Source: Nemertoderma westbladi (Eukaryota; Animalia; Xenacoelomorpha). From it: DNA of 64,000 nt. The notes beneath the pieces are model-generated. The model was not told the DNA's origin, ran no database searches, and saw only the letters and a program-made list of their open reading frames with translations. Of this stretch, positions 19,051 through 44,870 are shown piece by piece; the first letter of the stretch is position 1; the number at the start of each line of letters is the position of its first letter. The DNA lies in assembly GCA_032718475.1 (NCBI GenBank), contig JAUCBJ010000641.1, positions 57,723 through 121,722 on the forward strand, written 5' to 3'. Both the position numbers and the translations under genes were made by a program.

Positions 19051-20163
19051 TTGCAGGAATTGCTTGATCTCATCTGTAACAACTCAACTGTACCCGAAAT
19101 TTCATCAGAAACCATAAGGACTGCGATTCTCTCGTTGAACAAAAATAAGTCGCCAGACTCTGCATCACTAGTAGTGGAGCACCTACTAGCTCTTAATCCA
19201 ACTCTTGTTGTAGGGGTTCTCCACAATATCTTTAGAACATCGTTGCGCCTAGGTCATTGTCCCCAACTTCTTGGGGAGACGATAATTACATGTATCTATA
19301 AGGGTCACAGGAAAGATAGATTTCATCCATCCTCATATCGTCCGGGGTCTACGGTCAATATTATTGCAAAGATCTTGGAAGCGATTTGCCTCTCAGAATT
19401 TCTTCGGAGTGTCATAAAACCGCATGAGCTGTCGATGGCGTACCAGAAAGGCATTGGGTGTGACACTTCTATCAGTCTAGCATATGAGATTATAAACCAC
19501 TTTAACAGTAGCCGAGCTCCAGTGTACTTGTGCCAGACAGATATTGACTCAGCATTCGACACAGTGTGTAGACTCCTTCTGCAGTATTACCTTAGTGGCC
19601 GTTTCTTTTTCAAATTTGGTGAGGAGGTTGACATCAATAGCTTCACTCCAAGAAATGGAGTTAAGCAAGGATCTATCCTTTCACCGATCCTGTTTAATTT
19701 TCATATTTCTGATGCAATTGAGGCTGTTAAGAATTCTGGACTGGGGTGTAGAATTATTATGAATCGCAGTGTCTCCATCCTCAACTATGCCGACGATATC
19801 ATTTTATTTGCTGAATGCGGTGGGGACATCGATAATATGATGGTACTTCTGGATACCGAGCTAAAGAAAATTGGACTTTCTATCTCCATAAGTAAAACTC
19901 ACTGGACGATGGTAAATGGGTCATCTAAAGTGCAGAGTCTCTCTGACAGAACGCTATCAATCCTTGGTACAAATGTACTGTTCACTAAGTCAATATCTTT
20001 CCTTGGATTTACTTTCTACCAATCTCCATATCAGCTTCTAAATGAATGTCGACGCAGGATATCGTCAATGGGGGCGATCTTCCACACCAGGGGTTGGACA
20101 GTACGGCAATTTCCTGCGGAATGCATTGCCAGGCTATGGAATGCTGTCGCTGTGCCTGGTATC
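19051..20163 (+). pseudogene. Non-LTR RT ORF, part 1, cut by BEL/Pao A
   Basis: SYRP, DIDSAFDTV, GVKQGSILSPILF, YADD, FLG; ends at the GTATC target duplication. Confidence 0.88.
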
Positions 20164-21370
20164 TGTTCGCGCTTTCAGACCTTTGGCAGTTTAACCCGCC
20201 AAATTAAGATGTCTTCTAGATATTAAATCGTTTTTAGTCTATGACAAGTATTTGATTCACTACACTAGTCGAAACCAATCTGTGCGCGACCATTCACCCG
20301 CTGGATATTCCCGGGAGATTGGGTTCGACGGTTTAATTTTATTGCTATGTAAGCCTAATGTATTATTCGACTGACAGTATTATATAATCTCTGACAATAT
20401 TATTCACCTTCGGGAATATTAACAGTTCCTTTAGGACGTGGCGCTTTATCTATATAAACAGAGTTATGACTTAAACTACTCACAACGATATGGCTTAATT
20501 ATAATTCACATATATGGCGCATTCTTTAGGAATTGCTTCTTTAACAAACTCACTCATACGCAATGCTGCACAATACTGCACACTAATCTGCCAATCTTCA
20601 CTGATTTTAGTCACATATAAAAGGAACACAGACTGACTCATGTAGGGTCTATCAAATAACATTAGATTCACTTCAAACCACTTTAACATAAGTCACAATC
20701 GTTATTGGTAACCTTTCTCTCTTACCTTCGGTATATCAAGAATATTGGGTTTCGGGGTTATTTCTCGTTATTCCAAATATAATAATTCATCAACCATATT
20801 ATGAAGAACTGACAGTAAATAGCAGTATAAAACAACAACTGAACACTGATTGTTATGAGTTTGCAATGTTTCAGCAGTCAGGATGTATGATCAGTTAGCA
20901 GTGAGATATTTACAGGTTAAAGGATATATGTCCTTATAATTAAACCTACTAGTGTAAGACTAAAAACTGAAAACACGGAGGTGCCAAAAGCCGGTTCTTA
21001 GGCTCTGGGCAAAAACATAACACTGAACTACTGAGTTTCTGTATTTACCTCCAACACAGAGACAACAAACGCTCTGATTGGTCAACCTGAACAACGAGAG
21101 AACAAAGAAACAAAGAAACGTCGACGTGGCAATATCAGCTGCTAGCCGTCGTCATGGTAGCGACACTGTTTTCAAGAGTATCGAGCTTTTACGTCACGGA
21201 ATTACGGATTATGTCCTCTAAAGTACAAATACAGAAGAAATAGCTTTTATGTCCGCTAAAACACCAGTACAGCAAGGACACGGCCTTTTTATGCCTGGTA
21301 AACCAACTACAGAGTATTTTACGGGAAAAATAAGGAAAAATAACCGGGCAATTCAGCAAAAGCTTTTACA
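20164..21370 (-). repeat. 3' LTR of element A
   Basis: Only about 3 differences seen versus 32152-33358; preceded on minus strand by purine tract GGGAGCGG (21378-21371). Confidence 0.97.
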
Positions 21371-21399
21371 CCGCTCCCAGAAAATGGGATTTTCAGTCT

Positions 21400-22781
21400 A
21401 TAAAATATAAAAATCACAGTTTCTAAAACATAAAGATACTCTAAACAGTTAGTCTTTCTTACGCAGACGGCGTTTACGCAGTTTTTTGAGGCTAGCAAGA
21501 GTCTTTCTCTCTTTGGGGGGAGCCACTTTACTAGGAGGGCCATAACTCCTGGGTGAAGGGTGCAATATGATTGCATCAGAAGGTGTAGGTTTATGGTCGA
21601 GGTATCTGCCGTTTCGATATGCTTCTCCTCGAGCTGATTTTCCTCCGCTCGTAGCTGGATACGTTCATCCAAAAACTCTCGCAGAGAATAGGATCGTCCA
21701 AGTTCGATAACTTCTTAGAGATTCTGGATTTCCCAATCGAATTGAGATAAGGCCAATTCGTTTATCGATTGGACTTACTGTTATAACTTACGTTTATCTG
21801 AACAAACGCAGGTTTCCTTTTTGATCTTTATAGAATAGCGTTTAACTCGTTTCGTACAACGCTCTCCTTCACCTTGATGAGGGGTTGTATCGCGTTAAAC
21901 GGGGACGACCATACGGTTGGATAGTGATATTAGGTGTCTGCGTCATAATCCGGCTAGGCAAGATGGGCGGCTAGCTAGAAATCACTGTCGGAGTGTTACC
22001 GATTAATTGTTAGGGTAGCACTAGATCTTGAACAGTGAATACCGTCCGCGAGGATCCGCGACACCACCAGGATCACAGGTCTGAGGTCCAACTAAGGAAT
22101 GAGGAGGTTTGACCGAGTATTCCGGGACTCTGATCGTAGGTTTACTCTAGGATCGTTAGAGCCGAGTGAGCATAGGTGATACGTCAAACAAGTTTCGCTC
22201 GAAACTCCAGTAAATATAATGAATACAACTGTGTTTAACACAACGTTTCCGTGGATGTTTATGTCTTTCCGTTTATTGGCTGGATCTAGGGCATTTACCG
22301 TAATAATACCAAAGACGCACGTCTGGTAGGGGAAACGCGGGTGATATTTATTTGTTGTTACAATGCTTCTATCAAGAATTCCAAATATACGTTGGAGTTA
22401 CCGCGTTTATTTGTTTCTTTAGTGTCTTTTCTTTCGAGTCGATTTCGAATAGAATTTTCGCATTCGAATTTCAGTTTATGGTTCCGACTCCGCTGGGCAG
22501 GATATATAGTCGACATAGTCCGTATTGTGTAAATCGATAGGATGACCAGTAGTTAAGAAGACCATATACGTACCATTACGCTGCGTATATCGAGCAGCGA
22601 ATTTTCTATAGTCCAACTCGCGCGCGAGCTGCTCTTGGGACATTGGCGGTTCGATATAACGACCATCGTCCTCCGCAGCAGTTGGACTAACGTCGCCGCG
22701 TATTAAGCTATCAACAAACGCTTGTAAAAGTAGAGTATATCGCTCCCCGATACCAAGACCATCTTCTATCAACTCCGTCAT
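21400..22781 (-). pseudogene. Decayed, deleted copy of the extra ORF in element A
   Basis: MTELIEDGLGIGERYTL... homologous to the 44870 ORF; stops; jumps near 21610 to the basic C-terminus. Confidence 0.85.
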
Positions 22782-24430
22782 ATCTGCTATATATGAGTTT
22801 ATCCATATTATAATGAGTTTATATTTAGGCGAGCGGACGTCGCTGCCTACCCCAATCAACCCCCGGACAGTACGAGATCCTCAGCGCCGATGTGTCGTCG
22901 CCGCTGTACTTTCGCCAACGACGTAGCCGCACAACGACAACGACCACCGGCACAAGTCACTCAACTGTCCGTCCCAAAGGCTTAGATGTACTTCAGGTTT
23001 TCCTTGGAGAGTTAGGTTACTTTTACGATTGCGACTAGCTACTGTAAACACACTTTAGCAGTAACATTCACCTATAAACTCACAAATACCACACAACTGG
23101 TCACAACTACGCACATTCGGGCCATTTGTCCGTTAGTCAATGCCTTCCAGAATGTCACTGTATTATTATGTATCCTTGGATACTAGTAGTGCGCTATTTA
23201 TTCCCTATGCTATTCAATGGGACAAGCTTTCTATTGTTCGTTTAACTCAATTCTAATTCTAGCGTGGTTGTTGCTATGGTGACATTATGCAAAGCTAGCG
23301 GTAGAATTAGAGTAATTCCAATGCATACAGATCTGGGATGTTATTTAATAGTAATTCTTTAATAGTCAATGTCCTGTTTATACATGACTTTACGAATTTT
23401 ATCGGCTATTAACTATGTTTGGGAGACTTTCGTACACGCATACGCATAATAATATAAATCTCCGCTCCCTTGATCTATTAATTAATGGAATTTTGGGAAT
23501 GTTATAAATTGCGTAAAATGGCAATTTATTAAATTCATTAAAAGACATGAATTTAAATTTATTCCCTGAAATTTTATTATTTGATAATTAAATGGACATA
23601 TTTTGATTCTAGAACTTGTCTAGGGACACAAGATCCTTAATTCTAAGAAAATTGTCTCTTTAAGAATATCGGTAAATGCTACGATATCTTAATTGACTAG
23701 AATTGTTGAAGGATCTGAATTTTACAGATTTTGACTTATTTGATTTGTAAATATTAACTAATTAATATTTGAGATGGGCACCGATTTATTCCAGAACTTG
23801 TCTGGGGACGTTAACCATTGATTCTAGAATTTGTCTTTCAAGTATATCGGTGGGTGCCACGATATCTTAATCGACTAGAATTACAGATGGTCAAAGGGTT
23901 TAACAGATTTATTTTGCGTTATACGCTACTGTTAAAGGGACATCACGCTACTATATGTATTATTTAATATACGGTATGAGAGCAATATCGCACGAAGCAA
24001 TGTCAGTGTGAAGAGGCAAGTCGTTTCCAAGGTCTACCCAGAGCTTGGTTTAGCCGAGACACGAGGATCTGAACTTTGCATTCCTAATACTCTGCCTACC
24101 AATAATACTTAAATATAGTAGTGGCTTTATTGTACTTTAATAAGTACAGACATTTCATCTCACTGCAGTTACGTATTTATAATATAATACGGACAGTAAG
24201 GAAAGAGAAAAAATAATTATTTCTTCGCCGTCTCACTAAATATAATATAAGTAATTACGTACGTAATAAACACGAATATATTGCACTATTCTACAAAATA
24301 ATCGCCAAAATAATATTCTACTAAATTAAATAAAACGATTATAATAAAATTACATAGTAATACATACATAAATATAAAAATGATAAAAATAATATAAAAT
24401 AATAGAGTCACACGCCCACTCCATATGTTG

Positions 24431-25222
24431 TTACGTTATGGAGTCCCTAGATGTTTGAAGGATTAGGGAGGTGGTCGCGGGAAGAGAATCTTGCCTTCCA
24501 CAGTTTCCGGAGAGTCCTCCATTCCCTTCCGATAAACACAAACGACCGACTGGGTGATTGAGTCGCTGCATCCTGAATACAATTCCAGGTTTCCTCTTCG
24601 TCCTGGAATAGTGACGATAGAAACATCGCTCAAAGTATATGACGGCGTCACAAAGCCGATTCCAGGAGCTATAGTGGTCCGTCGCTCTCTGCAGGAGAGG
24701 TGAGAGTCCCTGCGAGACGTCTGATGTTCCAGAGCTCCAATCGCTCTCTCTGATCTTCATGAAGGATCCACTCGCGGTGGGGAGGCCCAGATCCACGGCG
24801 TCGTCCCTGGCAACATGTAATACCGACAGATCTATCCCGGGTTCAAATAACTCCGATCCACCCGTCCTGGTTTCAGGTTCGACTTTCTCCGCTCCCTTGG
24901 CTGGTCTAATCTCAGTCGGAGTAAGATGGGGAGGCCATTCATTCTCCTTACTCAGGAAGTCGGGTTCACCTAACCGGTCTATAGTATCTGTCAGTTCTTG
25001 AGGAGTTGCTCCTCTGGAAGCGATGTCCGTTGGATTAAACTTCTTGGGGCAATATCTCCATTGATCTACATTGGAGCTAAGATTGTCATTATCTGAGGAG
25101 TGTGGTGTTCCCTCAGTTGGGTCGTCTCCCTCACTAGTATCATCTTCCCATTCACTCACCTGGCGGACGCGATCTTGAAGCAGTCTTTCTCTGAGCGTTC
25201 TTCGGGAAGGTCCAGTAAGGTA
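24431..25222 (-). pseudogene. Pol remnants of element A (fused post-protease, RNase H tail and integrase C-terminal pieces)
   Basis: QWRYCPKKFNPTDIASRG, HYSSWNRL, LNHPVGRLCL match separate parts of element B pol. Confidence 0.85.
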
Positions 25223-25235
25223 CCAACCTACTCTA

Positions 25236-25858
25236 CTACTACTACTACTAGGATCGGCATGCTGCATTGCAGCTGCATTTTTAAGAATGCTGTGCCGGCT
25301 TGTCAACAAAATTGCACCGCCACAACTCCCTATCACCCATGACATTTGCTAGATCATCCGCATCTTTAAGGCCAGTGTCCTTTAAGATGCGTCTCAAGAA
25401 AGTCATGGGCTGTCCACCATGCTTATTCGCTCCATGAGGCTGCCAAAGTACAAGATTATGCACTGGCTGGTCCTCACGGCGAAAGCAATGTCCTGCAAAG
25501 CGGAGGCGATTTTGTTCTAGTGTCAAGCTTGGGGGAACCAATGAGACACCTCCAATGTTATATAGTGTCTGGTTGGAGATGTGTGCATTGTACTTGACAC
25601 AATGTACCCGGCGTAGCATTCTTGTGAATGTGCCATCCAGAGATTTGGTGTCCTCAGCAGTTAGAGCCCAGCATGGACTCCCGTAGAGGAGTACTGGAAC
25701 TACTGCTGCTCTAAATAATCGGACCTTAAGTTTCCGATTAATTCTAGGTGACTTCCAAATCCTGGAAAGCCTATTCAAGGCTGCCCATGCCTTTCCCTTA
25801 CGTATTCGAAGGTCCTCACCTGACTTCCGGATCCATGATCCCAGGTAACAGAAGTCGT
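25236..25858 (-). mobile_element. 5'-truncated RTE-like LINE inserted in element A
   Basis: DFCYLGSWI...RIWKS...LLYGSPCW...LRFAGHCFR; (TAG)n tail; 13-bp TSD CCAACCTACTCTA at 25223-25235 and 25859-25871; empty site present in B near 50465. Confidence 0.92.
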
Positions 25859-28800
25859 CCAACCTACTCTAGTTCTTACCGCATAGGTCTGTAGGGGCTG
25901 CGGTTGAGCAGGCCGTTTCTCTAACGTCTCCAGCGCCTCATGCGCGTTTTGGCCGATGAGTATTTGCACTCCAGGATAATCAGTCTGGAATCGAGGTATG
26001 TTAAGATGTTGGATGCTCTCATCCTCGTCCCAATCATAAAGGTCTGCTTGAGTAGTAGCGAAGTTCTTTATAGCCACCATTTTCACTGACCTTATGCTGT
26101 GTTCTCCTAATTCGTCCTGGGGGGTGGACAACGCTCCGACATAATAATCAGCTGTTATTGTAGATTTCCAAACTTGCATAATGCCTGACATGTTGAGCTT
26201 AGTTTGGAACTTGGGTTGTCCAGCAAATATATTTTCGGCTAGCTCTTTATCGATGAATGTTCCTGTGCTGCCGGAGTCCAGGAGGGCGTTCACTATATAG
26301 CTCTTCTGAGGTCCGTGGACCCGTAACTGGACTACAGGAAATTCTCGGATTCCTATATTGGAAGTTGGCGCTTTCCAAGATGGTTGTTGATCGGAAGTAG
26401 TTAAGGTAAGGTCGCTGTCTGTGTCTTTCTCGTACACGAGTGTTCGATACACTGCGGTGGTGTTTATTAGGTAACAGGATTCGTTTTGGTCGGAGAACTC
26501 GTCCGTATAGAATCCTTCCATCTCAGATTGATCAGTGTCGTTCACATCACTGAATTGGACATGTAGTTCGGACTCACTTACCTGACTCGGGCTGTTTCGT
26601 TCGAATTCCGTGTGCAACAAGATATGATGTTTTGCGCCGCACTTTGCACACCTTGCGTCGGAGTTACAGGTTCGCCGTTGGTGTCCTCGTCTGAGGCAAT
26701 TATAACACAACCGCTTATCCCACATGACTTCACGTCTATCCTTTAGTGATTTCCTCAGGAATTTATCACACGCATTTAAACGGTGGGGCCCGTCGCACAG
26801 CACACATTTGGGCTTGATGTTACTTACTTTAACATGTGCTGTGTGGTGCACACTTGTTCTTTCCTCAGGCTTTCTCACCTGAATTCTTTTAGGAGACGTA
26901 GGAGGGGTTTTTTGTACCGGTTCCCTTCTGTCATTGGGTCGAGACTTGGATTTACTTACCTGATCTTTAGGCATTTTATTGACATAAGATCTGTCAGTGT
27001 CTTTCCCGCTGTCCTCTCCTTGAGAAGTTTGGCTTTCACCGTCGTCGGTATAACATACTGGTATTACCCTTCTCCTAGAAACGGGTTTCTCACTTACCTT
27101 ACTTTCCGCTGTCTTCTCTCTGGACTGCTTCAGGAGCTGTAATTTCACTTCTCCATCTAGGAATGACATGAGATCAGCCATGGTAGGGTCTCGCCGTTGT
27201 TGTTCCATCATATATAACACTTTCTTATCCCAGCGTGTACCTACTCCACCTTTAGGTAAAGTAGAAGCCACTGCTCTAATAACCATAGTGTTCTGATACT
27301 CATGAGACTTACCTAGCCAATCTAATTGTCTGCAGATCTCCTGGATCTCATCGGAAAACTCGATAATTCCGCTACTAATAAACTTTCGGGGCGCTACTAA
27401 CTTTGCATACAAGTACCCAGCGATATTATTCCTATTACCATACCTGATATTTAGTGTATCCCAAACTTGTCTTAATCCGTCTGGATGTCCAATAAACTTT
27501 AACGCCATTAACTTGGGAGATCCTTCCAAGCATTCGATGAGGTATCTAAGTTTTTCTCCATTAGATAGTACAGAGTTCTGTATGTTATCTTTGTAATATT
27601 CATTAAAAGGTAACCATTTCATCTCATCTCCATTGAACTTAACGATCTCTCCCACCTTTACCGCTTGTCGGGCTTCGGTTCTAGCCATTTGACGCGTAAA
27701 ACTTTCTTGGGCCATCGTGCTATTTAATATCGAATTATCGGTATATAAATTTCTCGGATTATGATCAGTTCTATATGGAATATCATTATCAACAGGTCTA
27801 TAATTACCCTTAATAGGGTTCACTATAGGAGTTTCTACTTCGCTAGCAGTATAGATGCGTGTAGGCTCCACACCTTGCGCATGCGATACTTCAGACCTAA
27901 CAGGTTGACACATTGTTACAGAGGGTGGTGGTATACCCTTTTGGGTGTTTACTAATTTATCGCGTTCAAGCGCGATACTTTGCTGCACTTCTTGCAACTC
28001 TAGCCTACTTTCCCTTACTGTGCCCTTGAATTGTTGGACAGTCTCCTGCATCTGCCCGAGCAGGAGATCCATCCCCCGTCGTCTCTCGTCCACCCATTCG
28101 ACCGCCGAAGCGGGAGTCGCCAACGTTGTAGCGGGCGGACGAGGGACAACGGGCGACAAATCTGGAATATTTCGCTCGGAGTCCAGGGTATGCACTGTCT
28201 CATGGACTGTTCTGCTGGGCACAGGTAGCTTAGTGCTGTGCAAAGGGAATTGAGAAGTAGGTTCAGGGAGTACAGGTGTCTCTACGACCGAAAGGGTAGC
28301 TTCGGGAACAGGCCTAATTATTTCAGGCTCATCTACTATAGTAGGGAGTCTCTCTATTGTAATTATTTGGTCTGTGGGTTCTGTACTACCTACTTTGGTG
28401 TTATTTAGTTGCCTTCTAACAGCTGGAGGCAAATCAGGCAATTTCTGCCGGTGGAATGTTCTTTTACGTCTGCTTAGGCGAGATCGATTTCTTCCGCCTT
28501 CAGTGTCGGTGGTATTGCCTTCCTCAGATGATGTATACCCCTGTCTCTTGGGAGTAGATCGACTCATCATCTGCATATTGCTCGCTGTTAACTGTTTATT
28601 GAAGTTGTCTTGCTTCTCTTGAAGAATTTCCAACTCTAGTTGGGTTGCCTCTTCAGATGCCCTCCGTTCGGCTTCTACCACTGCCTCTGCTATTGCCAGT
28701 GCCGCTTTTCTTTCGGCTTCTGCCGCTGCCACTGCTGCTGCCACTGCCGTTGTCTTTCTATCTTCTATACGTTTTTTCTTTACTTGTTCTTCTTGTTCTC

Positions 28801-29929
28801 TAGCAATGCGGAGTTGTTCATCGAATTTAGCTTGGTTCGCCGCTAACCTATCCACATCAATCGCATCTAACACGAGTTTGGCTCCTTCGCTATTAGGGCT
28901 AAGTCCCTCTAGCCTTCTCCTCAACTCTTCATCTCCCAAAAAACGCTGATAGTCTGACAGATAGATATCAATGGCATCCTTCTTATGCGGTTTCTCTGCC
29001 GTCGCTTCACTTTCCACTTGGGAAAAAGTAGCGTCCGTCGATTCTCCATGGGTTGAGCGCTCCTCCAACTGAGCTTTCCACTGAGCTGCTCCTTGAACCT
29101 GGCGACTCACCCGTTGAAACCAAGTTTTTACGGCAACTTGCAACGACGTGTCTTGTTTTCTTTTAGAAGCCTCCTCAAAGGCGGATAAGATTAGCCTAAT
29201 CCGCAAAACTCTTTCTCTAACTTGATAAAGCAGCGATCCCTGCTCTTGAGGTCCTTGAGGTTGTTGAAAAAGTTGCTTTTCTACTCGCTCCACAGAGCTG
29301 AAGAATCCCTGTGCGTATCCGGCTGCGGACCTCTTCCACACAGCTGGATCGATGGTTTCCTTGGCTACTCCCATCCGGTGTATGTCTTCCCAGGCAGCTT
29401 CTGATAAATCAAACGGGAGTCCGGGTCCGGGGAAGTTCCATTGCAACTCGACAATAGACTTCAGTTCTTCACTCGTGTATCCCGCGTAACTATCTCTAGT
29501 TGACCGTTGACTTCTCGCCCAATCGATCTGGTGTTCTTCCACCGCGATCAATAACCCAGCGAGCACGGCTGCAGGAAGGATGAGAAGGGGATCCGTATAA
29601 ACCGCATCCGTCATCTCTGCTCCGCGCTCGGGTGTCAGCTCTACAGTATCCTCACTACTGGAGCTGCTGGGCCGCTGAGGAATAAGTTCTTGACTAGCGG
29701 GTTGTTGCTGTTCCGCTGCTTGTTGGTCCCGCTTGACCTGAGCTCGGGTGCCTATGATAGACCTACGATGTTGGACTAGCCTAGGTTCTGTTATTACTAC
29801 TGGAGGGATGACCTTCCTCACAGTGGGAGGTGAACTGAACTTACGACCAGACGGTTGTACGTCTCGATCTGAGTTGCAGATAGTTACATCTAATAAACTG
29901 TCTGACAGGTTCTGCTTAGTATCAGACAT
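25859..29929 (-). CDS. BEL/Pao Gag-protease of element A (frame runs into the RTE insert to 25775)
   Basis: KFNGDEMKWLPF capsid-like region, three Cys/His knuckles, ALLDSGS protease. Confidence 0.9.
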
Positions 29930-32139
29930 GACTAGGTATGTACAGTTGAATGCCTACTGCTATATTACAGTCTAAGCAAGTCTAGTAACTCAGTATTAAC
30001 TGCTAGCCTAGTAATTAATTACCGTTACTGCTACTCAGTGTAGCGTGATATATAATATATTATAATACCGGTATGCTTATAGTATAGATAACTATTATTA
30101 CAGACTAGTTTTATCACCGAATACCGGTATAATTTAGCACAAATATATATAAATATATAATAGGTCTATCTGGAATACCGGTATACAGCTTACAGTTTGT
30201 AGGATATATAATTCTGAAATAGAATTAATTACACGTACCGGTATAATTTCAGCCTAGATTTATAGAAATAAAGATAATAGGCCTATCGTAAATACCGGTA
30301 TATCAATTATTTTAAAAATAACTGAATTTCTGAATTTCAAGGGTTACTTGGTTACTTTACTTACTTTATTACCGTTATTTGAGCAGTAATCCAACTGATA
30401 TTGAGACCTAATGGTTGTATGGTAGGCCTACTATTTATAAATCGTTAGATTTGATTTATAATATATATATACCCGTTTTAATGGGTTTTGTCTATGTTTG
30501 AAATAAATGTTATTATTTCTGGGGTAATCACTACACAAAGCGGTGCGCTTTCAGTGAAGTGTTACGTATAGGACACTAAAACAAATGATTCTAATTTACC
30601 TAAGTTACTTAATACTACAAATTACGTACAATTCGGGTTGAGATTACAATCTCTAAATAAACACAAAAATTTACAAAAACACAAATACGAATTTTTTAGG
30701 GTAATTTTACAAGAAGTCTACAAACCAGTCTAACAAAGGGTTAGAAATCTGGTTATTACAGCGGACAGGGTACTGCGGTATTTGAAAATAATACGTAGTA
30801 GTAAATACACTGCGTTGTCTAGATAGGAAAATACCACCGCCTGACGACCTATAGCCGTATCGTTATAGGTTCTACGTTATGTATCACGGAGTGTTCCTAT
30901 CTAGAAGTTAATAGAGCTAATCGAATGTGCCTATCAACCACTTTACAACACAAATATAATGCCTACACTAATTACTTCGGAAAGTACTGTACACTAAACC
31001 CTAAATTAGGTACGAGTACTTGTACAACAGATAATCAGTAGTTAAATATACTTGAACAGCTAAAAGAACCACGGCATCTGCTGGAGTGACCGATGCACAA
31101 AATCACCAGTCTTTACCTACGCCGAGCAGCCCGTGTAGTACCGGGGTTAATTTAACTATAGCGGTATGTATAACAAACACAATTACTGTAGGAACAAACT
31201 TGGGGAATGAATGTTGCGGATAATCGCATAAACTCTGAATAATAAATATTACGCTACGCGTACAAACTACTCAAACAAAATACAGACCGAACACTGACAG
31301 ACTACTATCAAGCCTAAACAAACTACGGTATATGCAGACTCCGAAATGATTAGGGAGTATGCGCTCTAACCCAGTAGTGCGACTTATTCTTTAGTTGGGG
31401 GTTTACCTTACAGCGTTCGCTGCCCCTACTTCCTAACCGTACTTAATCAGACAAATGATCTACACACACTGCAATCCGTTCAGACCTAATAACAGCCAGA
31501 CAACTATCCAGCCTACAAATTATCTAAATAAAATTATACGCTACCCGTACAGACTTACACAAACAAAGTACAGACTAAACGATGGCAGACTACTCTCAAG
31601 CCTAAATAAACCGCAGGACATGCAGACTCCGAAATGATTAGGGAGTATGCGCTCTAACCCAGTAGTGCGACTTATTCTTTAGTTGGGGGTTTACCTTACA
31701 GCGTTCGCTGCCCCTACTTCCTAACGGTACTTAATCGGACAGGTGATCTACACACACTGCAATTCGTTCGGACTTAACAGCAATCAGACAACAGCTCAGC
31801 CTACAAATCGTCTGTACAATCTGATCAGGCTTACACGCCTTCTGTTCAATACTGGCCTACAAATAAATAAAACTTGACAGAAATAAGTAAACCATATAAA
31901 GGAATAAGGGGTGATCAATCCCTAATCCCTCAAACAGCCTACCGGTATGCAACAATCAAATCGAATAATACTAGTGTACTTATACGGAAGTACCGGTTAG
32001 GACAGCTAGGCCCTACTGACCTACGGCAGTACCGGTTCTAGCGGTTGGGCCTACTGACCTACAGATGTACCGGTCTGCCGGTTCAGGTTTACCGGTTGAC
32101 CAGTACTTTCAACTTTATTGCTTACTGCAACAAAGAAGC

Positions 32140-32151
32140 TATATCCTTTAA
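32140..32151 (-). promoter_or_regulatory. Primer-binding position of A, complementary to its own LTR (32905-32916)
   Basis: Minus strand reads TTAAAGGATATA directly after the LTR, no TGG; LTR minus strand contains TATATCCTTTAA. Confidence 0.7.
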
Positions 32152-33358
32152 TGTTCGCGCTTTCAGACCTTTGGCAGTTTAACCCGCCAAATTAAGATGT
32201 CTTCTAGATATTAAATCGTTTTTAGTCTATGACAAGTATTTGATTCACTACACTAGTCGAAACCAATCTGTGCGCGACCATTCACCCGCTGGATATTCCC
32301 GGGAGATTGGGTTTGACGGTTTAATTTTATTGCTATGTAAGCCTAATGTATTATTCGACTGACAGTATTATATAATCTCTGACAATATTATTCACCTTCG
32401 GGAATATTAACAGTTCCTTTAGGACGTGGCGCTTTATCTATATAAACAGAGTTATGACTTAAACTACTCACAACGATATGGCTTAATTATAATTCACATA
32501 TATGGCGCATTCTTTAGGAATTGCTTCTTTAACAAACTCACTCATACGCAATGCTGCACAATACTGCACACTAATCTGCCAATCTTCACTGCTTTTAGTC
32601 ACATATAAAAGGAACACAGACTGACTCATGTAGGGTCTATCAAATAACATTAGATTCACTTCAAACCACTTTAACATAAGTCACAATCGTTATTGGTAAC
32701 CTTTCTCTCTTACCTTCGGTATATCAAGAATATTGGGTTTCGGGGTTATTTCTCGTTATTCCAAATATAATAATTCATCAACCATATTATGAAGAACTGA
32801 CAGTAAATAGCAGTATAAAACAACAACTGAACACTGATTGTTATGAGTTTGCAATGTTTCAGCAGTCAGGATGTATGATCAGTTAGCAGTGAGATATTTA
32901 CAGGTTAAAGGATATATGTCCTTATAATTAAACCTACTAGTGTAAGACTAAAAACTGAAAACACGGAGGTGCCAAAAGCCGGTTCTTAGGCTCTGGGCAA
33001 AAACATAACACTGAACTACTGAGTTTCTGTATATACCTCCAACACAGAGACAACAAACGCTCTGATTGGTCAACCTGAACAACGAGAGAACAAAGAAACA
33101 AAGAAACGTCGACGTGGCAATATCAGCTGCTAGCCGTCGTCATGGTAGCGACACTGTTTTCAAGAGTATCGAGCTTTTACGTCACGGAATTACGGATTAT
33201 GTCCTCTAAAGTACAAATACAGAAGAAATAGCTTTTATGTCCGCTAAAACACCAGTACAGCAAGGACACGGCCTTTTTATGCCTGGTAAACCAACTACAG
33301 AGTATTTTACGGGAAAAATAAGGAAAAATAACCGGGCAATTCAGCAAAAGCTTTTACA
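32152..33358 (-). repeat. 5' LTR of element A
   Basis: Direct repeat of 20164-21370. Confidence 0.97.
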
Positions 33359-33487
33359 GTATCCTTTATGGCCTAGAATTTAATTTTGGAATGCTTTCAG
33401 GTACTGAAGTGGAATCGCTGAATGGACAGTTTCGTAAAATCATGCGTGGTCTCATGTACTGTAATAATCGTGTGTCAAACTCAGCTC
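33359..33487 (+). pseudogene. Non-LTR RT ORF, part 2
   Basis: Continues in frame after the TSD: (VPG)ILYGLEF...FRKIMRGLMYCNNRVSNSA. Confidence 0.8.
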
Positions 33488-33975
33488 TGTGGTGATCAGC
33501 AGCAAGGACATACAAAATATGAAACACAACAATATCAAATTACAAAAAACGTTATAAATAATATAACGCCATCTAGGAAAGTTTACAGGAAACAACAAAA
33601 TTGCGCTAGAATAATCCTGACCGCTGATTGGAGGATAACAAAGAGGGATAGATAGGTAGGATAATACCGGTAAGTAAGTGATATATCAAGATATGGTCAG
33701 TACAATACAGTACCTACAGTAGTAGTTTAGATTCGTGTTTCTTTTTGGATGTCTGACATCTGATTGTCTGACGTATGTACCGATGTATTTTGATTTATCT
33801 GTTTTGATTAGATTTATCTGCAGTATTATGTTCTGATGTTATGAACTAACAAACTAATCGTTTTAGCCAGCCTGCCAGTTAACGGCAGATTTTCTTCAGG
33901 GAAACCAGAAAAACTAAGTGGTAGATTGCCACGGAACCCGGGTTTGACCTTATCCTGTTATCCAGCTTTCACATT

Positions 33976-33992
33976 TGGGGGCTCGTCCGGGA
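33976..33992 (+). promoter_or_regulatory. tRNA-Pro primer-binding site
   Basis: TGGGGGCTCGTCCGGGA, matching the tRNA-Pro PBS known from murine leukemia virus. Confidence 0.92.
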
Positions 33993-34151
33993 GGATTTTT
34001 TTTCTTCCTGGTTACTGCTGCTGGTTATAGACTTGTTACTTGTACCGTCAGACCGCTGGGCGTAGATATCGATTGTTGGTTATCGGTAAACTGGCTGACT
34101 TTGGACTTGTACCGGTAATATCAAGCATTCAGACAGTCAGCGAGTCAGGGT

Positions 34152-34811
34152 ATGACAGACGTTTTTGGATTCGAGAATGATAGCGATAGTACCGGTAGTA
34201 GATGCGGAGGGTCTGACCAAACGCAAATAGCCGTCGGTCCGAGAGAAGAATCAAGTTGGACGGACATAAACTTAAATAGTCCGGCGGTTGTCGTTCCTGG
34301 TTCCGGTTGCGACCGTCCTAGATATTCTGAAACGCAGTCTCACGGTAGGAATCGGTTTCCTGCAGTACCGGTACCAGGAGAAGGGGACGATTACATACAT
34401 CCTAATAGAGAGCAGCAAGGTACCGATACCTGTATACAGCTTGAACACAACGCACCGATAATGGCGGATATCAGGAAGGAACCGGAAATATTCGACGGGC
34501 GTGGAGATGTTGATTCCTGGGTTAGTGCATTGCAGCGATTGGGACGTCTTCGAAGATGGAATTACGTGATGATGGGAAGGGTTGCTTCCGTTTATGTGTC
34601 AGGTACCGCGGCTCGCGTAATAGAAGAATTACCTACTGAACAACAAGTCGATTTTGATAGCGTAGTAGCCGCTCTGCGAGCTAGATTTAGGCCTTTACCC
34701 CCCGATGTTATATGTAGTAAGCTGTTAGATTGTAGGCTTGGAATAAATGAAACTATAGAGGAGTATGTAGATAAACTCCAGAAATGGGGACAGCAAGCCT
34801 GGACAAAGTGA
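34152..34811 (+). CDS. Gypsy-type Gag capsid protein, 219 aa
   Basis: PEIFDGRGDVDSWV...VSGTAARVIEELP...FDSVVAALRARF...NETIEEYVDKL (major-homology-like region). Confidence 0.85.
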   Translation: MTDVFGFENDSDSTGSRCGGSDQTQIAVGPREESSWTDINLNSPAVVVPGSGCDRPRYSETQSHGRNRFPAVPVPGEGDDYIHPNREQQGTDTCIQLEHNAPIMADIRKEPEIFDGRGDVDSWVSALQRLGRLRRWNYVMMGRVASVYVSGTAARVIEELPTEQQVDFDSVVAALRARFRPLPPDVICSKLLDCRLGINETIEEYVDKLQKWGQQAWTK

Positions 34812-36212
34812 TGTCGGCACACCTTAGTGTACAGTAGTACATACAGTAAGGTATAAGTATATACAGTAGAACAGTGACTGATGATATTTACATAAACCAA
34901 CAAACTATATGCAATATGCACTACCGTATGCAGTTTAGATCCTACTAAACATTTTGTAGGTTATTATTGCACGGTCAGTATATTATTGGTATGTATACGT
35001 GTTACTATTTAGATTAGACATATTTAGTGTTTTGTTTTATGAATGTAAATTAAACTATAAATTTTTGCTGTTCCCATTTCACCCCTCTTTGTTGTCGCAG
35101 AAAAATAACTATTTAGCGGAACCGAATCCTCTAATCTCATTTGGTAGTAAATGTGGTGTTGTTTTACATTTGAATAAATGTACAGTATGTATTTTATTTT
35201 TGGATACCATAAGTTTATTGATATGTTTATTCATTCTGTAGAGACTTATTTTGTTTCTGTTTATTTCATAGAAAACTCGCCAATTGGCTATTTTGCTTGC
35301 TTTGGGCGCCAAAGGAGGTCTTGAAGGTCTGTTGTATATTATTAGCCTATTGGTTATTAACTTTTTTATTAAATAACATTTGCCTATTGGCTATCATTTT
35401 GCATTGTATGTATTAATTGTTGTCTAATGACTGTCATATTCAGTAAATTTAATTGCCTATTGGCTAAGCTACTGTAGCTGAAATTAATAACTACTTAGTA
35501 CATATTGCAGTTGGTATTGGCAACTGGTAGTTGGAATGGGAATTCACATTTCCTGTACATAAATGAATAAAGTGTACCAAGTGCGTTGGATTTTAACTAA
35601 TTCTATGTTCATATATTTTGTAGGTATTTTTACATTATTATTGTGCTGTTTTTATTTAGATTCGGTTCTGCAAAATATTTTTATCAAACCACTCGGGACG
35701 AGTGGTTTCCTTTCGTGGGGGGGATTTGTGGTGATCAGCAGCAAGGACATACAAAATATGAAACACAACAATATCAAATTACAAAAAACGTTATAAATAA
35801 TATAACGCCATCTAGGAAAGTTTACAGGAAACAACAAAATTGCGCTAGAATAATCCTGACCGCTGATTGGAGGATAACAAAGAGGGATAGATAGGTAGGA
35901 TAATACCGGTAAGTAAGTGATATATCAAGATATGGTCAGTACAATACAGTACCTACAGTAGTAGTTTAGATTCGTGTTTCTTTTTGGATGTCTGACATCT
36001 GATTGTCTGATGTATGTACCGATGTATTTTGATTTATCTGTTTTGATTAGATTTATCTGCATTATTATGTTCTGATGTTATGAACTAACAAACTAATCGT
36101 TTTAGCCAGCCTGCCAGTTAACGGCAGATTTTCTTCAGGGAAACCAGAAAAACTAAGTGGTAGATTGCCACGGAACCCGGGTTTGACCTTATCCTGTTAT
36201 CCAGCTTTCACA

Positions 36213-39375: not shown

Positions 39376-40531
39376 TGTTTGCGCTTTTAAGACCTTTGAC
39401 AGTTTAACCTGCCAAATTAGGATGTCTTTTAGATGATATATAGTCTTTAGCCTATGACGAGTATTTGATACACTACATTAGCCGAAGCCAGTCTATGCGC
39501 AATCATTCACCCGCTGGATATACCCGGGAGACTGAATTCGGAAGCTTAATGATTGATGGTGTAAGCCTACTGTATTATTCGACTGATCGTAATATATAAT
39601 CTCTGACAAATATTATTCACTTTCGGGAAATATTAACAGTTCCTTTAGGACGTGGCGCTCTAATTATGTAAACAGAGTTATGACTTAAACTAGACACAAC
39701 GAAAAGGCTATAGATTCACGTATATGGCGCATTCTTTAGGAGATGCTTTGTTATCAGTTACAATCATACACAATGCTGCACAATACTGCACACCAATCTG
39801 CCGACCTTCACTAATTTTAGTCACATACAAAGAGAATAACAGACAATACATGTAGGGCCTATAAAATAGCATTAGATTCACTTCAAACCACTTAACATAG
39901 GTCGCAATCGTTTATCTGTAACCTGTCTCTCTAACCTTTAGTATATCAAGAAGGTTGGGTGTCTGACTATTGATCAGTATTCCAAATATAATCTTCCATC
40001 AACAAATATAATGAATAACCGACAGCAAAAGCAGTAATGTTAAGTAAGATATGCATGATATGTTTAGTAAGCATTGATAAGGTAACTCGATAACAGATAT
40101 ACGTTCTATAATTAAGCCTACTAATGTAAGACTAAAGACTGAAACACGGAGGTGCCAAAAGCCGGTGTTCTTAGGCTCTGGGCAAAAACATAACACTGAA
40201 TTCCTGAGTTTCTGTATCCACCTCCAACACAGAGACAAAAACGCTCTGATTGGTCAACCGAACAACGAGAGAACAAAGAAACAAAGAAATGTCGACGTGG
40301 CAATATCAGCTGTTAACCGTCGTCATGGTAGCGACACTGTTTTCAAGAGTATCTAGCTTATCGCGTCACGAGATTGCGGATTATGTCCTCTAAAGTACAA
40401 ATACAGAGGAAATGACTTTTATGTCCTCTAAAACACCAGTACAGCAAGGACACGGCCTTTTTATGCCTGGCAAACCAACTACAGAGTACTTTAAGGGAAA
40501 ATAACCGGTTAATTACGCAAAAGCTTTTACA
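39376..40531 (-). repeat. 3' LTR of element B
   Basis: TGTTTGCGC...CTTTTACA; homologous to the other three BEL LTRs. Confidence 0.95.
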
Positions 40532-40609
40532 CCGCTCCCAGAAAATGGGATTTAAGTCTATAAAATATAACAAATCACAGTTTCTAAAATATAAAAATAC
40601 TCTAAACAG

Positions 40610-42049
40610 TTAGTCTTTCTTACGCGGACGGCGTTTACGCAGTTTTTTGAGGCTAGTAAGAGTCCTTTTCTCTTTGGGGCGAGCCACTTTACTAGGAGGG
40701 CTGTAACTCCTGGGTGAAGGGTGCAATACAATTGCATCAGAAGGTTTCGGATTGCGATCGGTGTATCCGCCGGTCGAGGTACCTGGTTGATTGATATCAA
40801 CTTCCGTGGAGCGCGGTCTAACAGCCTTTAGGGCGCGCCTCAGGACAGCAGCTCCTACGGGTCCTTGACGGGTTGTCTGGGCAATGGCGGTAGGCGGACC
40901 GTGAGTGGTGAGAAACTTCCTTGGTTTAATAGTTCTTTCCAGCTCGCGTTCTCGGGCTCGATATTCGTAGGGCCGTCGAGATACTTCCTGTAACTCAGGG
41001 TGCGAGTTGATAAATAAATCGCCATACTCAGGGTCTTGACGGATATAATTGATCAAATGGTATGAAGTAATATCGTTAGGATTGACATTCCTAAGGTATC
41101 TTCTAACAAATTTAGTGGAAATACACTCACCAACACGCTTCATTAGCTCGTAACTCGGTATGCGTGTTTTTTGTTCCACAGACGCTAATAAATAAGGATG
41201 GAACGCGTAAACTCCCTCGTAAGAGCGTCCAGGGTAGTATCGATGACGGGACTCACAGTGTAAATCCGCGTTAGCTTCCCAAGCTCGGATGTAGCGCAGG
41301 GTAATCATTTCATCTACGCTCTCTAAATCGTGATTAAAGGGGCAATTATAACTGGCATGTCCTTTAAGTTGACAGTGGTGGCATTGAGTCATAAATTGGG
41401 GGCAGACTGCAAAAATATGAGAGTTATTAAGTCTGCAATACGCACAATATATCTCCATCATTGGTTGTTTGTGGAAATAGGAGCAGGGTACGTCTGAGTC
41501 CATAGGGGTGAAATGGTCTCTCGATGCGCATAATCGACAACGTTTTCGAGAAACATAGTTAGCGTGTCGATAATCGTATGCGGTGAGACATTGTGGACCT
41601 TGATACCACTCTAAGACGTAGTCGTTATCGCTGCTCCGGGGCGCTGTAGGCTGAATCGCTTCAGCTTCTAAGCATATTGGTTCGTCTTCCAATTGCATAG
41701 CTGAGGTAGGTGCGGCTGTCTCCGCAAGCTGACCCACTGTCTGAACTTCGACGACAGAATAACCCGTGGGTATTCGGGGTCTTTGTATAACAGATGAATG
41801 CAAGTTCTGTATACAAACGTCCTGAAAAAGGGCAAATCCCGCGCTGTTTAGTTTCTCCGCCGCTGAGTCTCTCAGGCTGAGTTTGGTCAGAGCGCGGTCC
41901 TTGAACTGACTATCAACGTTACGGAACGGAGTCAGAAAGCGCCTGAAACATTCGAAACGGATGAATTTATTGTGTTCATCTAACTTGGCGAGTTTGGTTC
42001 CAAGTATTAAGGGATGGGTGCGGGGTGCGTATGGTACGACTGCACACAT
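40610..42049 (-). CDS. Extra ORF, distal part: Cys/His zinc knuckles and basic tail
   Basis: CRLCASRDH..C, CAYCRLNNSHIFAVC, CHHCQLKGHASYNC; C-terminal KKLRKRRPRKKD; overlaps the upstream ORF in another frame. Confidence 0.75.
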   Translation of the reverse strand: MCAVVPYAPRTHPLILGTKLAKLDEHNKFIRFECFRRFLTPFRNVDSQFKDRALTKLSLRDSAAEKLNSAGFALFQDVCIQNLHSSVIQRPRIPTGYSVVEVQTVGQLAETAAPTSAMQLEDEPICLEAEAIQPTAPRSSDNDYVLEWYQGPQCLTAYDYRHANYVSRKRCRLCASRDHFTPMDSDVPCSYFHKQPMMEIYCAYCRLNNSHIFAVCPQFMTQCHHCQLKGHASYNCPFNHDLESVDEMITLRYIRAWEANADLHCESRHRYYPGRSYEGVYAFHPYLLASVEQKTRIPSYELMKRVGECISTKFVRRYLRNVNPNDITSYHLINYIRQDPEYGDLFINSHPELQEVSRRPYEYRARERELERTIKPRKFLTTHGPPTAIAQTTRQGPVGAAVLRRALKAVRPRSTEVDINQPGTSTGGYTDRNPKPSDAIVLHPSPRSYSPPSKVARPKEKRTLTSLKKLRKRRPRKKD

Positions 42050-44870
42050 CGGCTAGCCAACCGGCAAGTGCTGCGTTTTCAAAGATCGTGTATATAGCTA
42101 AGGAGGGACGAAGTGGAACACTCATAAAGCTATACACGGCGCCAGGTGCGGTCAATGGTCCATCAAAGTATAAACGAGAATAGTGATCTCCGTATACTTG
42201 TTGGTAATTTATAGGATTTCCAACCTTGAAATTCCATCCGTATTCTTGAAAGGCAAGATGTCCGATGGAGGTTCGTTGTACTTTGGTAATTCCGCTGGGT
42301 GTATTGGCATACATAGTGCGGAAGAAACCTCGGCCTTCTGCCCAAGGAGCAATCAGCTGAGTATCAACGAAGGGGTATGGAATGTTCTCCATATTCCGAA
42401 AGTCGTTCTGTAGGTCTCCATAAACAGCTGAGCCGATTTTAAGGATTCCTTCGTTAAACAGCATCTCGAGCACGGGTTGGGGTAACATCGATCCATCGAT
42501 ACCCATGGCCGGCTTGCACTCGGTGTCGGTGACGTAACGCTGCGCGAGTTCAAATTGTCCATGTCGGAGTTTCTTTTGTGTCTCAGTAAGAGTTTCAAAA
42601 GAATAATCAATAACGTCGGAACACGCTCGAGTAAATACGTGGGTAGAACCAGCGAGTCCTCGTATATGTATCATCTGCGTAGTTCCAAGTTCTCCAACCG
42701 GAACGCTACCTTCGTTATCGTAAGTGACAACTCCATACATCTCGATAACGTTAAGAGTTTCGTTCCACTCTTTAGTGGCGTTTTCGAGTGTCATTCCCAC
42801 AGGATGCCACAAGGTAGCACATTCGCTAGCATTAGGCAGGTCTTTATACTTTAAATATTGTGTGGTATATGTTTCCACATCTCCATATCGTTGTATTCTT
42901 TCCTCCTCGAATAACACATCAAGATTCCAGTGCACTAAACGAGTTTTGATGAATCCATCAAGATTATACGGAGGTATTGTTTCTTTCTCTATTCTGGAAA
43001 CATTATATGGTTTTCGAAACGAGTTTACTTTAACTAACTGATCCAGATGTTTCTGCAGTTGTTCGAGTTCGACAAGATCGAGAGGATTTATTAACGGTAG
43101 AAACTTCAGACTATGTGTAGGATCTTCCGGTTTTACCATGTAATATTGTTTTAGATTGACGTAATAAGGGTGATCTTTGATCCCATAAAACGAGTCCGGT
43201 AAAGGTCTAGCGCGTATGTTTACATCGTGTACCATGCGACGGACAAGATCTGCTCTATTGTCCAGAGGTTCAACGAGTATACCATCGACACGAGCGGGTT
43301 CGATGGGCGGACGCTGCAACAGAGGAGCGTCGGCGATAAGATCGCGAGATCTTAGGTTGATATCAATCGGTTGGGGTTGTGCCGTCGCAAAAAGTTTGTC
43401 TCCGAAATGGGGAACCATCGAGGGATGAAGAATGGTTTTAGAGTAGAGATCCGTCATAAGGATTTCCGCTTCGGGTTGAGCTAAAGCCGCTTCTTCTCTC
43501 TCATCCAGTTCTATATGTCTCTCCTCGAGCTGATTCTCCTCCGCTTGTTGTTGTAGACGCTCATCTAGAAACTCTTGTAAAGAGTAGGTTCGTCCACGTT
43601 CGATGTCCTCCTCGAGATTTTGTATTTCTCTATCGAACTGGGGTAAAGCTAATTCCTTCACCGCTTGGACTTGTTGCTGCAATTTACGCTTCTCCAAACA
43701 ATCGTACGTTCCCTTTCCGATTTTCTGCCGAATAGCGTCTAATGCGTTTCGTACGACGCTCTCTTCGACTTCCGTAACGGGTTGGATAGAGGTGAAGCCG
43801 GGACGGTTGTATGGGTTAAACGGCGATATTAGTTGACCACGTCCCAATCCAGCTAGGTAGGGTTGGCGAATGTCTCGTGAGCCTACTACCAGAGTGCCAC
43901 CGATCAACTGTTCGGGTAACACTAGATCTTTGAACAGTGAGTACAGTTCGGGAGGATCCGTGATACTATTAGGGTCAAGAGTTTGAGGTCTAACTGAGGA
44001 ATGCGGAGGTCTGACCGAGTATTCCGGAACTCTGATCATCGGTTTGTTCAAGGATCGCTTGAGTCGAGCGACCGCAGGGGACACGTCGAACAGGTTTCGC
44101 TCGAAACTCCCGTAAGTATATCGTGTAAAACTGTGTTTAGCGCAACGTCTCCGCGGATGTTTATGTCTTTCCATTTGCTGATTGGGTCTAGGGCATTCGT
44201 CACAGTAATACCAAAGACGCATGTCCTGCAGAGGAAACGCGGGTGATCGTTCTCCAGTTTTACAATATTCCTCCATCTGTTCGAAGCTATCTGGGACAAC
44301 AGGTAGCGGTCGATCGGCGGTAAGATACATCATAGTGAAATAGAGTCGTTTGAGTTCTATCATAGGATCATGATGTATACCTTGAGGATATCGAGTTTCG
44401 AGATTTTGTTGACTGGCAATATTGAGGTATGTTTCTCTCAAGAATTCCAGATAATCGTTGAAGTCGTTGCGTTTATCCGGTTCTTCAACGTCTTCTCTTT
44501 CGAGTCGGTTTCGAATAGAGTTCTCGTGTTCTATTCTTGGCTTATCGTTCCGATTCCGTTGGGTATGATATTTAAATAAAACCATTTCCCTTTCGGTATC
44601 CACATCGTCCGTATTGTGTAAATCGATAGGGTGGCCGGTAGTTAAGAAGTCCATATACGTACCATTACGATGCGTATAGCGAGCTGTGAACTTTCTATAG
44701 TCCAATTCACGCGTAAGTTGCTCCAGGGACATTGGCGGTTCGATATAACGACCATCATCCTCCGTAGTAGTTGGACCAGCGTCGCCGTGTATCAAGCTAT
44801 CGACAAACGCTTGTAAAGGTAGAGTATATCGCTCCCTGATACCAAGATCATCTTCTATCAACTCAGTCAT
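41976..44870 (-). CDS. Extra ORF, 964 aa, with putative DEDD/DnaQ 3'-5' exonuclease domain (WRN/EXD/RNase D-like)
   Basis: VVTYDNEG (ExoI), LPQPVLEMLFNEGILKIGSAVYGD (ExoII), FVDTQ, SIGHLA, PLTAPGAVYS (ExoIII-like), about 42110-42760. Confidence 0.72.
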   Translation of the reverse strand: MTELIEDDLGIRERYTLPLQAFVDSLIHGDAGPTTTEDDGRYIEPPMSLEQLTRELDYRKFTARYTHRNGTYMDFLTTGHPIDLHNTDDVDTEREMVLFKYHTQRNRNDKPRIEHENSIRNRLEREDVEEPDKRNDFNDYLEFLRETYLNIASQQNLETRYPQGIHHDPMIELKRLYFTMMYLTADRPLPVVPDSFEQMEEYCKTGERSPAFPLQDMRLWYYCDECPRPNQQMERHKHPRRRCAKHSFTRYTYGSFERNLFDVSPAVARLKRSLNKPMIRVPEYSVRPPHSSVRPQTLDPNSITDPPELYSLFKDLVLPEQLIGGTLVVGSRDIRQPYLAGLGRGQLISPFNPYNRPGFTSIQPVTEVEESVVRNALDAIRQKIGKGTYDCLEKRKLQQQVQAVKELALPQFDREIQNLEEDIERGRTYSLQEFLDERLQQQAEENQLEERHIELDEREEAALAQPEAEILMTDLYSKTILHPSMVPHFGDKLFATAQPQPIDINLRSRDLIADAPLLQRPPIEPARVDGILVEPLDNRADLVRRMVHDVNIRARPLPDSFYGIKDHPYYVNLKQYYMVKPEDPTHSLKFLPLINPLDLVELEQLQKHLDQLVKVNSFRKPYNVSRIEKETIPPYNLDGFIKTRLVHWNLDVLFEEERIQRYGDVETYTTQYLKYKDLPNASECATLWHPVGMTLENATKEWNETLNVIEMYGVVTYDNEGSVPVGELGTTQMIHIRGLAGSTHVFTRACSDVIDYSFETLTETQKKLRHGQFELAQRYVTDTECKPAMGIDGSMLPQPVLEMLFNEGILKIGSAVYGDLQNDFRNMENIPYPFVDTQLIAPWAEGRGFFRTMYANTPSGITKVQRTSIGHLAFQEYGWNFKVGNPINYQQVYGDHYSRLYFDGPLTAPGAVYSFMSVPLRPSLAIYTIFENAALAGWLADVCSRTIRTPHPSLNTWNQTRQVR

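Follow-up and report, generated by a model that had tools for sequence, protein, structure and literature searches.

Possible self-priming in BEL/Pao retrotransposons of Nemertoderma westbladi and related elements

Primer-binding sites and anatomy of two related elements

The window, meaning the whole 64,000-nucleotide stretch of DNA analysed here, comes from Nemertoderma westbladi (Xenacoelomorpha; GCA_032718475.1, contig JAUCBJ010000641.1, forward positions 57,723-121,722). Comparison of the window with itself reveals two related retrotransposons with long terminal repeats (LTRs), both from the BEL/Pao superfamily, on the minus strand, A (20164-33358, 13.2 kb) and B (39376-57966, 18.6 kb). 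In each, the primer-binding site (PBS) position is an exact complement of a segment within the element's own LTR, which is suggestive of a primer derived from the element's own RNA. The features involved are as follows.

32140-32151 (minus): PBS position of A, 12 nt, TTAAAGGATATA, no TGG, no spacer after the 5' LTR
32905-32916 (minus): LTR segment of A complementary to the PBS, the predicted self-primer, at LTR position 443-454, 753 nt from the LTR end
32152-33358 (minus): 5' LTR of A, TG...CA, 1207 bp, 3 differences from the 3' LTR
20164-21370 (minus): 3' LTR of A, with the same segment at 20917-20928
56785-56795 (minus): PBS position of B, 11 nt, ATAACAGATAT, adjoining the 5' LTR, no TGG
57519-57529 (minus): LTR segment of B complementary to the PBS and homologous to that of A, 723 nt from the LTR end; a second is at 40090-40100
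56756-56766 (minus): second PBS copy of B, part of a 29-nt duplication, which keeps the downstream context homologous to A
56796-57966 (minus): 5' LTR of B, 1171 bp
39376-40531 (minus): 3' LTR of B, 1156 bp, with the same segment at 40090-40100 and no target-site duplication shared with the 5' LTR
57459-57518 (minus): hypervariable tract of B directly 3' of the segment; 48% of columns differ between the two LTRs of B

The initial annotation had reported the 12-nt match in A, the 11-nt match in B between 56795-56785 and the homologous LTR position, the absence of a TGG-starting PBS after either LTR, and the placement of the primer 3' end at the LTR edge. All of these are borne out, and both PBS positions adjoin the terminal CA. 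A motif that it placed beside the partner site of B, TATAATTA, is read on the antisense strand. The segment of A lies at LTR position 443 in both of its LTRs, and the segments of all four LTRs fall in the same alignment columns. The PBSs of A and B differ at positions 1, 5 and 6, and at all three the LTR partner carries the matching base, as had been claimed. Crossed pairs are much shorter: the PBS of A finds only 5 nt in the 5' LTR of B, and that of B only 6 nt in the 5' LTR of A. At an LTR divergence of 17.6%, the chance that all three sites change to the base needed is about 2e-4 to 1e-3.

Dinucleotide shuffles of the LTRs (20000 each) reach the observed length in 8 cases for A (P 0.0004) and 21 for B (P 0.001), and 0.07% (A) and 0.14% (B) of 46467 control positions in the window, repeats included, do so. 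The arrangement is that of Tf1-type elements, with an LTR segment of about 11 nt complementary to the PBS and a 3' end at the LTR edge. The window also holds a control, a small element at 33488-36212 (plus strand) that has a TGG-type site and a self-complement of at most 4 nt. We take its site to resemble one for tRNA-Pro. This element, about 130 bp from A, has 486-bp LTRs that are 99.6% identical, a 4-bp target-site duplication and a weak Retrotrans_gag match, and lacks a pol open reading frame (ORF) of at least 150 aa. ARAGORN finds no tRNA within the 64-kb window.

Divergence between the two LTRs of B is 0 in the segment, 48% in the adjacent 60 columns, 2% in the following 60, 4% in the distal part of the repeat and unique 5' regions (R-U5) and 9-13% in the unique 3' region (U3). 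The hot spot 3' of the segment would be explained if minus strong-stop DNA ended and jumped there. The 29-nt duplication of the LTR end and PBS of B (56756-56795) holds an inverted copy of the downstream leader and looks like a strand-transfer slip. The 5' leaders of both elements also contain a tandem duplication of about 290 bp (A 31234-31808, B 55902-56484).

The remaining features of the two elements are these.

33359-33363, with its counterpart at 20159-20163 (unstranded): target-site duplication of A, 5 bp
21371-21378 (minus): polypurine tract of A, adjoining the 3' LTR
25775-29953 (minus): gag-containing ORF of A (DUF1759)
40532-40539 (minus): polypurine tract of B, adjoining the 3' LTR
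46514-54610 (minus): gag-pol of B, a single frame broken by two stops into three ORFs, with DUF1759, protease and reverse transcriptase (RT) motifs, Peptidase_A17 (RNase H region) and an integrase with DUF5641
40610-44903 (minus): two extra ORFs of B after the integrase, 975 and 480 aa, without a membrane segment

A is a young, non-autonomous copy, because its LTRs differ at only 3 positions and it keeps gag and lacks the RT and integrase regions, which correspond to 48548-50323 (RT) and 46677-48074 of B. A stretch of about 600 bp in A (25236-25858) has no counterpart in B and a weak DUF6451 match; it is probably an insertion at a deletion breakpoint. The LTRs of B are about 92% identical and no matching target-site duplication flanks them, so B is probably a recombinant of two insertions. 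Elsewhere in the window lie a 42-bp satellite array (1 to about 11000) and an array of 30-bp period (57967-62487) that adjoins the 5' LTR of B. Two plus-strand ORFs belong to non-LTR retrotransposons: that at 13273-16470 has endonuclease and RT, and that at 19048-20226 has RT only and extends into the 3' LTR of A.

The Pfam domains DUF1759, Peptidase_A17 and DUF5641 are all matched above the cut-off, and the pol order of B (protease, RT, RNase H, integrase) is that of BEL/Pao, with protease and RT recognized by motifs in the translation. Among the matches listed for the RT region of B are 120 relatives, all of which (120/120) carry PF05380 or PF03564, at a best identity of 43-45%; the best named relatives among those matches are from corals, echinoderms, molluscs and a hemichordate. 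Structural marks of BEL/Pao are also present, namely TG...CA LTRs, polypurine tract and 5-bp duplication in A, and LTRs and polypurine tract without a duplication in B. The chromovirus (Ty3/gypsy) RT and integrase that define Tf1/sushi are not found. As the initial annotation stated, BEL/Pao elements are described as tRNA-primed, and the International Committee on Taxonomy of Viruses (ICTV) gives an 18-nt PBS for tRNA-Arg or tRNA-Gly (PMC8742986), which neither A nor B has. We take this trait as descriptive; BEL/Pao membership of A and B rests on their proteins.

As far as tested, the two extra ORFs of B have no relation to priming. The 975-aa ORF (41976-44903, minus) has no Pfam match, and against 3'-5' exonuclease clusters (PF01612) of the ESM Atlas its last 260 residues reach a score of 0.92; a DEDD-type nuclease-like domain would be unusual in a BEL element. 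A retains only the part of this region that matches B at 43509 and above. The Cys/His-rich 480-aa ORF (40610-42052, minus) overlaps the longer one and has a weak zinc-knuckle match (E 0.03). An envelope reading of these ORFs was rejected, there being no membrane segment, no Protein Data Bank (PDB) match and no usable fold (pLDDT 31).

Self-complementarity and splice junctions in outside BEL/Pao loci

An alignment of 56 RT regions was used to collect relatives, which comprise 80 metagenome and 17 genome-collection loci (97 in total). An earlier metagenome scan with a single-protein query and a scan of viral contigs gave no match. A direct repeat surrounds the RT in 44 of the 97 loci, and 17 have a usable LTR 3' end, after removal of L089 (a tandem repeat and not an LTR) and L018 (a repeat that ends short of the LTR end). 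Twelve of these 17 are self-complementary over 10-15 nt, two are TGG-type and three are unassigned.

The complement is a contiguous 11 nt in two of the 17 loci (L057 and L078). In ten others, a 10-15-nt complement is formed across a donor and a pyrimidine-rich AG acceptor within the LTR. Nine of these ten are reached by 0-3 of 60 shuffles; the tenth, L038, has a 4-nt offset and was left unshuffled. The two TGG-type loci (L051 and L009) have a self-complement of only 4-5 nt. A 14 x 14 comparison of every PBS with every LTR gives 10-15 nt on the 12 self-type diagonals and 4-5 nt on the two TGG diagonals, and none of the 182 cross-family cells reaches 10 nt. In L083, counted among the three unassigned loci, a canonical junction yields pairing at 10 of 11 nt, with a single mismatch (read by eye).

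A blind scan covered 53 of the remaining 80 loci, those with at least 250 nt upstream of gag, with 25 shuffles per locus. It yielded 15 spliced matches, each above 25 of 25 shuffles, and 3 accepted contiguous ones (18 in all). Matches in L026, L032 and L055 and the contiguous match of L090 were dropped as likely chance or misplaced. The sister loci L086 and L087 differ at 2 exon-end positions across the junction, and both PBSs follow. We tabulated 25 non-redundant cases, which are A, B and 23 outside cases; the near-copies L086, L018, L021, L025, L033 and L044 are omitted, and L038, resolved later, is absent. The paired length is 11 nt in 16 of these, 12 in three, 10 and 13 in two each, and 14 and 15 once each. 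The 23 outside cases share register and length, 19 of them only across a splice junction. The self-complement signature, which the initial annotation had presented as a trait of one family, runs through the whole branch sampled.

In the L057 locus, the 5' LTR copy carries a pyrimidine-AG acceptor at precisely the position at which the 3' copy has the segment in joined form. As judged from these two copies, an intron was lost precisely, which shows that the splice is real and able to convert the spliced form to the contiguous one. The contig ends before the donor is reached and, with copies 88% alike, is possibly chimeric. Splice-junction primers in A or B were also considered and rejected, as the best reach 9-10 nt (p 0.13-0.27) and are shorter than the contiguous match.

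Phylogenetic placement rests on quick trees of 120 and 59 rows, from which L095 and other short segments are absent; the 59-row tree is without long rows and near-copies, and the RT comparison was confined to BEL/Pao sequences. B forms a long branch, not fixed in position, at the base of a 50-row group that holds all self-type loci (SH-aLRT 94, not starred). The 5 rows with the contiguous form are scattered and require 5 changes; the two TGG loci group together (93) inside the 50-row group.

Two further observations concern the outside loci. A spacer of 0-4 nt between LTR and PBS tends to accompany extra bases between the polypurine tract and the 3' LTR (L004, L007, L008, L038 and L045 compared with L022, L027, L030, L057 and L093; L029 and L064 are exceptions), and the sequence trend suggests matched end processing by integrase. 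Also, L081-L097 are BEL/Pao elements, several with both LTRs, in contigs filed as bacterial genome bins, and represent contaminating animal DNA.

Start site, mechanism and alternatives

The bases 5' of the segment also match those 3' of the PBS, and this pairing is better for cognate combinations than for crossed ones (p <=1e-4). Compared with shuffles, this second helix has a mean z of -0.70, with 20 of 25 cases negative (Wilcoxon p 0.005), whereas a control window gives -0.12, with 10 of 24 negative. This pairing includes G-U pairs, follows a bulge of about 3 nt and is strongest at -4 to -12. The rows are non-independent and individually significant in only 4 of 25; A alone (p 0.16) and the distal PBS copy of B (p 0.21) are not significant. 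The bases 3' of the segment give no signal of pairing to the U5 end (p 0.55-0.61). In A, the following stretch may take part.

32917-32930 (minus): upstream stretch of A with TATAA at -10, which may form the second helix with 32139-32125; absent from the global fold

If transcription of the spliced families began at the segment, the first exon would be no longer than 3-9 nt. Because of this and of the second helix across families, transcription likely starts upstream of the segment, unlike in Tf1, and the starts at 32916 and 57529 predicted in the initial annotation are not favoured. Its self-priming reading otherwise keeps its core: covariation, controls and the outside families all support a self-derived primer. 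A shared TATA box at -25 to -31 was rejected (2 of 26 rows), and just 3 of 26 rows, B not among them, have TATA-like words at -10 to -12. An initiator reading of the first base of the segment was not used, since this base is A in 15 of 25 cases and follows a pyrimidine in 17 of 25, and a fixed 11-nt register gives pyrimidine-A in only 9 of 25. Sequencing run X1 (contigs, kind uncertain) covers U3 as well as R-U5 and cannot show the start site.

Taking all forms together, the primer is likely derived from the element's own RNA, and it is reasonably likely that a segment of the 5' LTR RNA primes minus-strand DNA in cis. Transcription would start in the 5' LTR at the segment or some tens of bases upstream, and the segment, whose complementarity is observed, is predicted to fold back on the PBS, closing a loop of about 750 nt. 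As in Tf1, the RNase H of RT would cut on the 3' side of the segment, so that a 3' OH lies exactly at the LTR edge. RT would then copy U5-R as far as the cut and jump to the 3' LTR. Tf1 reportedly keeps its primer; by analogy, plus-strand synthesis would copy about 11 nt of the retained primer into a new PBS, and this copying would enforce PBS-LTR covariation. A, which has no RT, would be copied in trans. In most relatives the segment would exist only once the LTR intron is removed, and A and B carry the contiguous form.

Predicted folds of A pair all 12 nt with a probability of 0.84-0.96 for most starts 0-40 nt upstream, and those of B reach 0.73-0.76 in a single run and only when the start is 0-1 nt upstream. 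Several observations weigh against this reading. In one run, on RNA with a shorter 3' end, pairing in A is 0.53 for a start 30 nt upstream, and it falls to 0.03-0 for starts 60-100 nt upstream. The segment of B pairs elsewhere once at least 5 upstream bases are included (probability 0 at 5-60 nt), and forcing the helix costs 9.5 kcal/mol, or 12.9 for the second PBS copy. Predicted folds of 800 nt carry little weight in either direction, and the leader of B is rearranged. The loop in A and B (723-753 nt) exceeds those of all 23 outside cases (48-360 nt). The TATAA 10 nt before the segment of A, if it is a TATA box, would put the start just 3' of the segment. As short-read contigs, the outside loci may be chimeric, and they are phylogenetically non-independent; 35 of the 53 loci in the blind scan, many without a whole LTR, gave no accepted match, as did 3 of the 17.

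Some of these points fit a different source for the same RNA, which we consider rather unlikely. The primer could be element RNA from the 3' LTR copy, or a second co-packaged RNA; in spliced families, spliced RNA would be the donor and unspliced RNA the template. The segment is indeed present in both LTRs, the joined form of L057 sits in the 3' LTR, and such a primer would need no 3-9-nt first exon and would account for intron survival in progeny. The TATAA of A could likewise place the start 3' of the 5' copy, and the cis fold of B is unfavourable. However, A is predicted to fold readily in cis, and the rarity of TATA-like words at -10 to -12, which B lacks, does not fit. We also know of no precedent for self-priming from a 3' copy or in trans, which counts against it.

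Alternatively, the primer could be a host tRNA, a tRNA half or some other small RNA, with the LTR-PBS pairing serving to mask the site, circularise or dimerise the RNA, or aid strand transfer. This is improbable, although tRNA priming is part of the ICTV family description (PMC8742986) and half-tRNA priming is reported in Ty1/copia (PMC6317226). The letters of the PBS vary among families, and at 3 of 11 positions even between A and B, which are closely related; the paired stretch stops at the LTR edge or 0-4 nt away from it and has a length fixed near 11; and TGG-type elements are without LTR pairing.

It is very improbable that template switching or fold-back in reverse transcription produced the match as a by-product, with no priming role. 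Real slippage did occur in the leader of B, where the 29-nt duplication holds an inverted copy of sequence further downstream, but register and length recur in the 23 outside cases, 19 of which exist only across a splice junction, and no alternative primer site is present. Finally, a chance match in AT-rich DNA can be dismissed: both motifs are AT-rich and one unrelated copy of the 12-mer of A lies at 38712, but the shuffle values, the homologous position, the three compensated changes and the replication in outside loci speak against it.

To a broader proposal we give an even chance. A large branch of BEL/Pao in marine invertebrates would as a rule be self-priming. Its primer would be an internal 11-nt segment belonging to a two-helix structure, and in most families splicing of an LTR intron would create that primer. 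A and B would sit on a deep branch as members without the intron, and the tRNA priming of a nested subclade may be a secondary gain.

Comparison with known self-priming systems

The ICTV describes tRNA priming in Belpaoviridae as assumed by analogy, and their replication as poorly understood (PMC8742986). A and B share with this family the LTRs, the polypurine tract, the order of gag, protease, RT, RNase H and integrase, and the family-specific Pfam domains. They differ in having no tRNA-type PBS, where the family has an 18-nt one, and in their lengths of 13.2 and 18.6 kb, compared with genomes of 4.2-10 kb (PMC8742986). A word search of the main text of PMC3118150, PMC6238403, PMC554778 and PMC2774666 gave no mention of PBS, tRNA or priming. 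No report of BEL/Pao self-priming was found in the literature, although supplements, Repbase or GyDB entries and subscription papers could hold an earlier remark. Cer7, a BEL-type element of Caenorhabditis elegans, is said to have been proposed to encode its own primer through an internal tRNA-like sequence and not an LTR segment; we found no paper on this.

Published accounts describe self-priming in Tf1/sushi and Tcn1 and predict it in plant TAR elements (PMC6317226, PMC4600332, PMC5341516). The 'conserved hairpin site' of fungal GalEa copia elements resembles the arrangement in A and B in that a self-complementary sequence occupies the PBS position and there is no tRNA PBS (PMC5445492). However, both arms of the GalEa hairpin lie downstream of the LTR, 12-41 nt apart (PMC6934838), and its authors found no LTR complement, according to the available text (PMC5445492). 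In the TAR lineage (Houba, Osr-1), self-priming is predicted where at least 10 nt complementary to the LTR begin 0-5 nt past the 5' LTR (PMC6317226), as they do in A and B. TAR elements are plant Ty1/copia, and the available part of that source does not mention a splice-junction form (PMC6317226).

If BEL/Pao elements do prime themselves, all three LTR retrotransposon superfamilies would include tRNA-independent lineages, which bears on whether self-priming is ancestral, a question raised in PMC3601003. The proposal would name the exact 11-nt primer and its cut site, and would account for the failure of PBS-based annotation on such elements. It would also imply an escape from control by tRNA supply and tRNA fragments and, in the relatives, tie the initiation of reverse transcription to host splicing.

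The nearest likeness is to Tf1 and Tf2 of Schizosaccharomyces pombe, Tj1 of S. japonicus, other Tf1/sushi elements and Tcn1, which like A and B have no tRNA site and carry about 11 nt of their own LTR complementary to the PBS, with the 3' end at the LTR edge (PMC7175516, PMC4600332). In Tf1 the transcript's first 11 bases are the primer, freed by RNase H between bases 11 and 12 (PMC7175516), and the same length forms the peak among the BEL/Pao cases. Tf1/sushi elements are Ty3/gypsy, whereas A and B belong to a different superfamily, BEL/Pao. An independent origin, as the initial annotation proposed, is plausible, and shared ancestry is possible too. A and B probably work like Tf1 although they stand outside that group, and probably differ from it by using an internal segment of the transcript.
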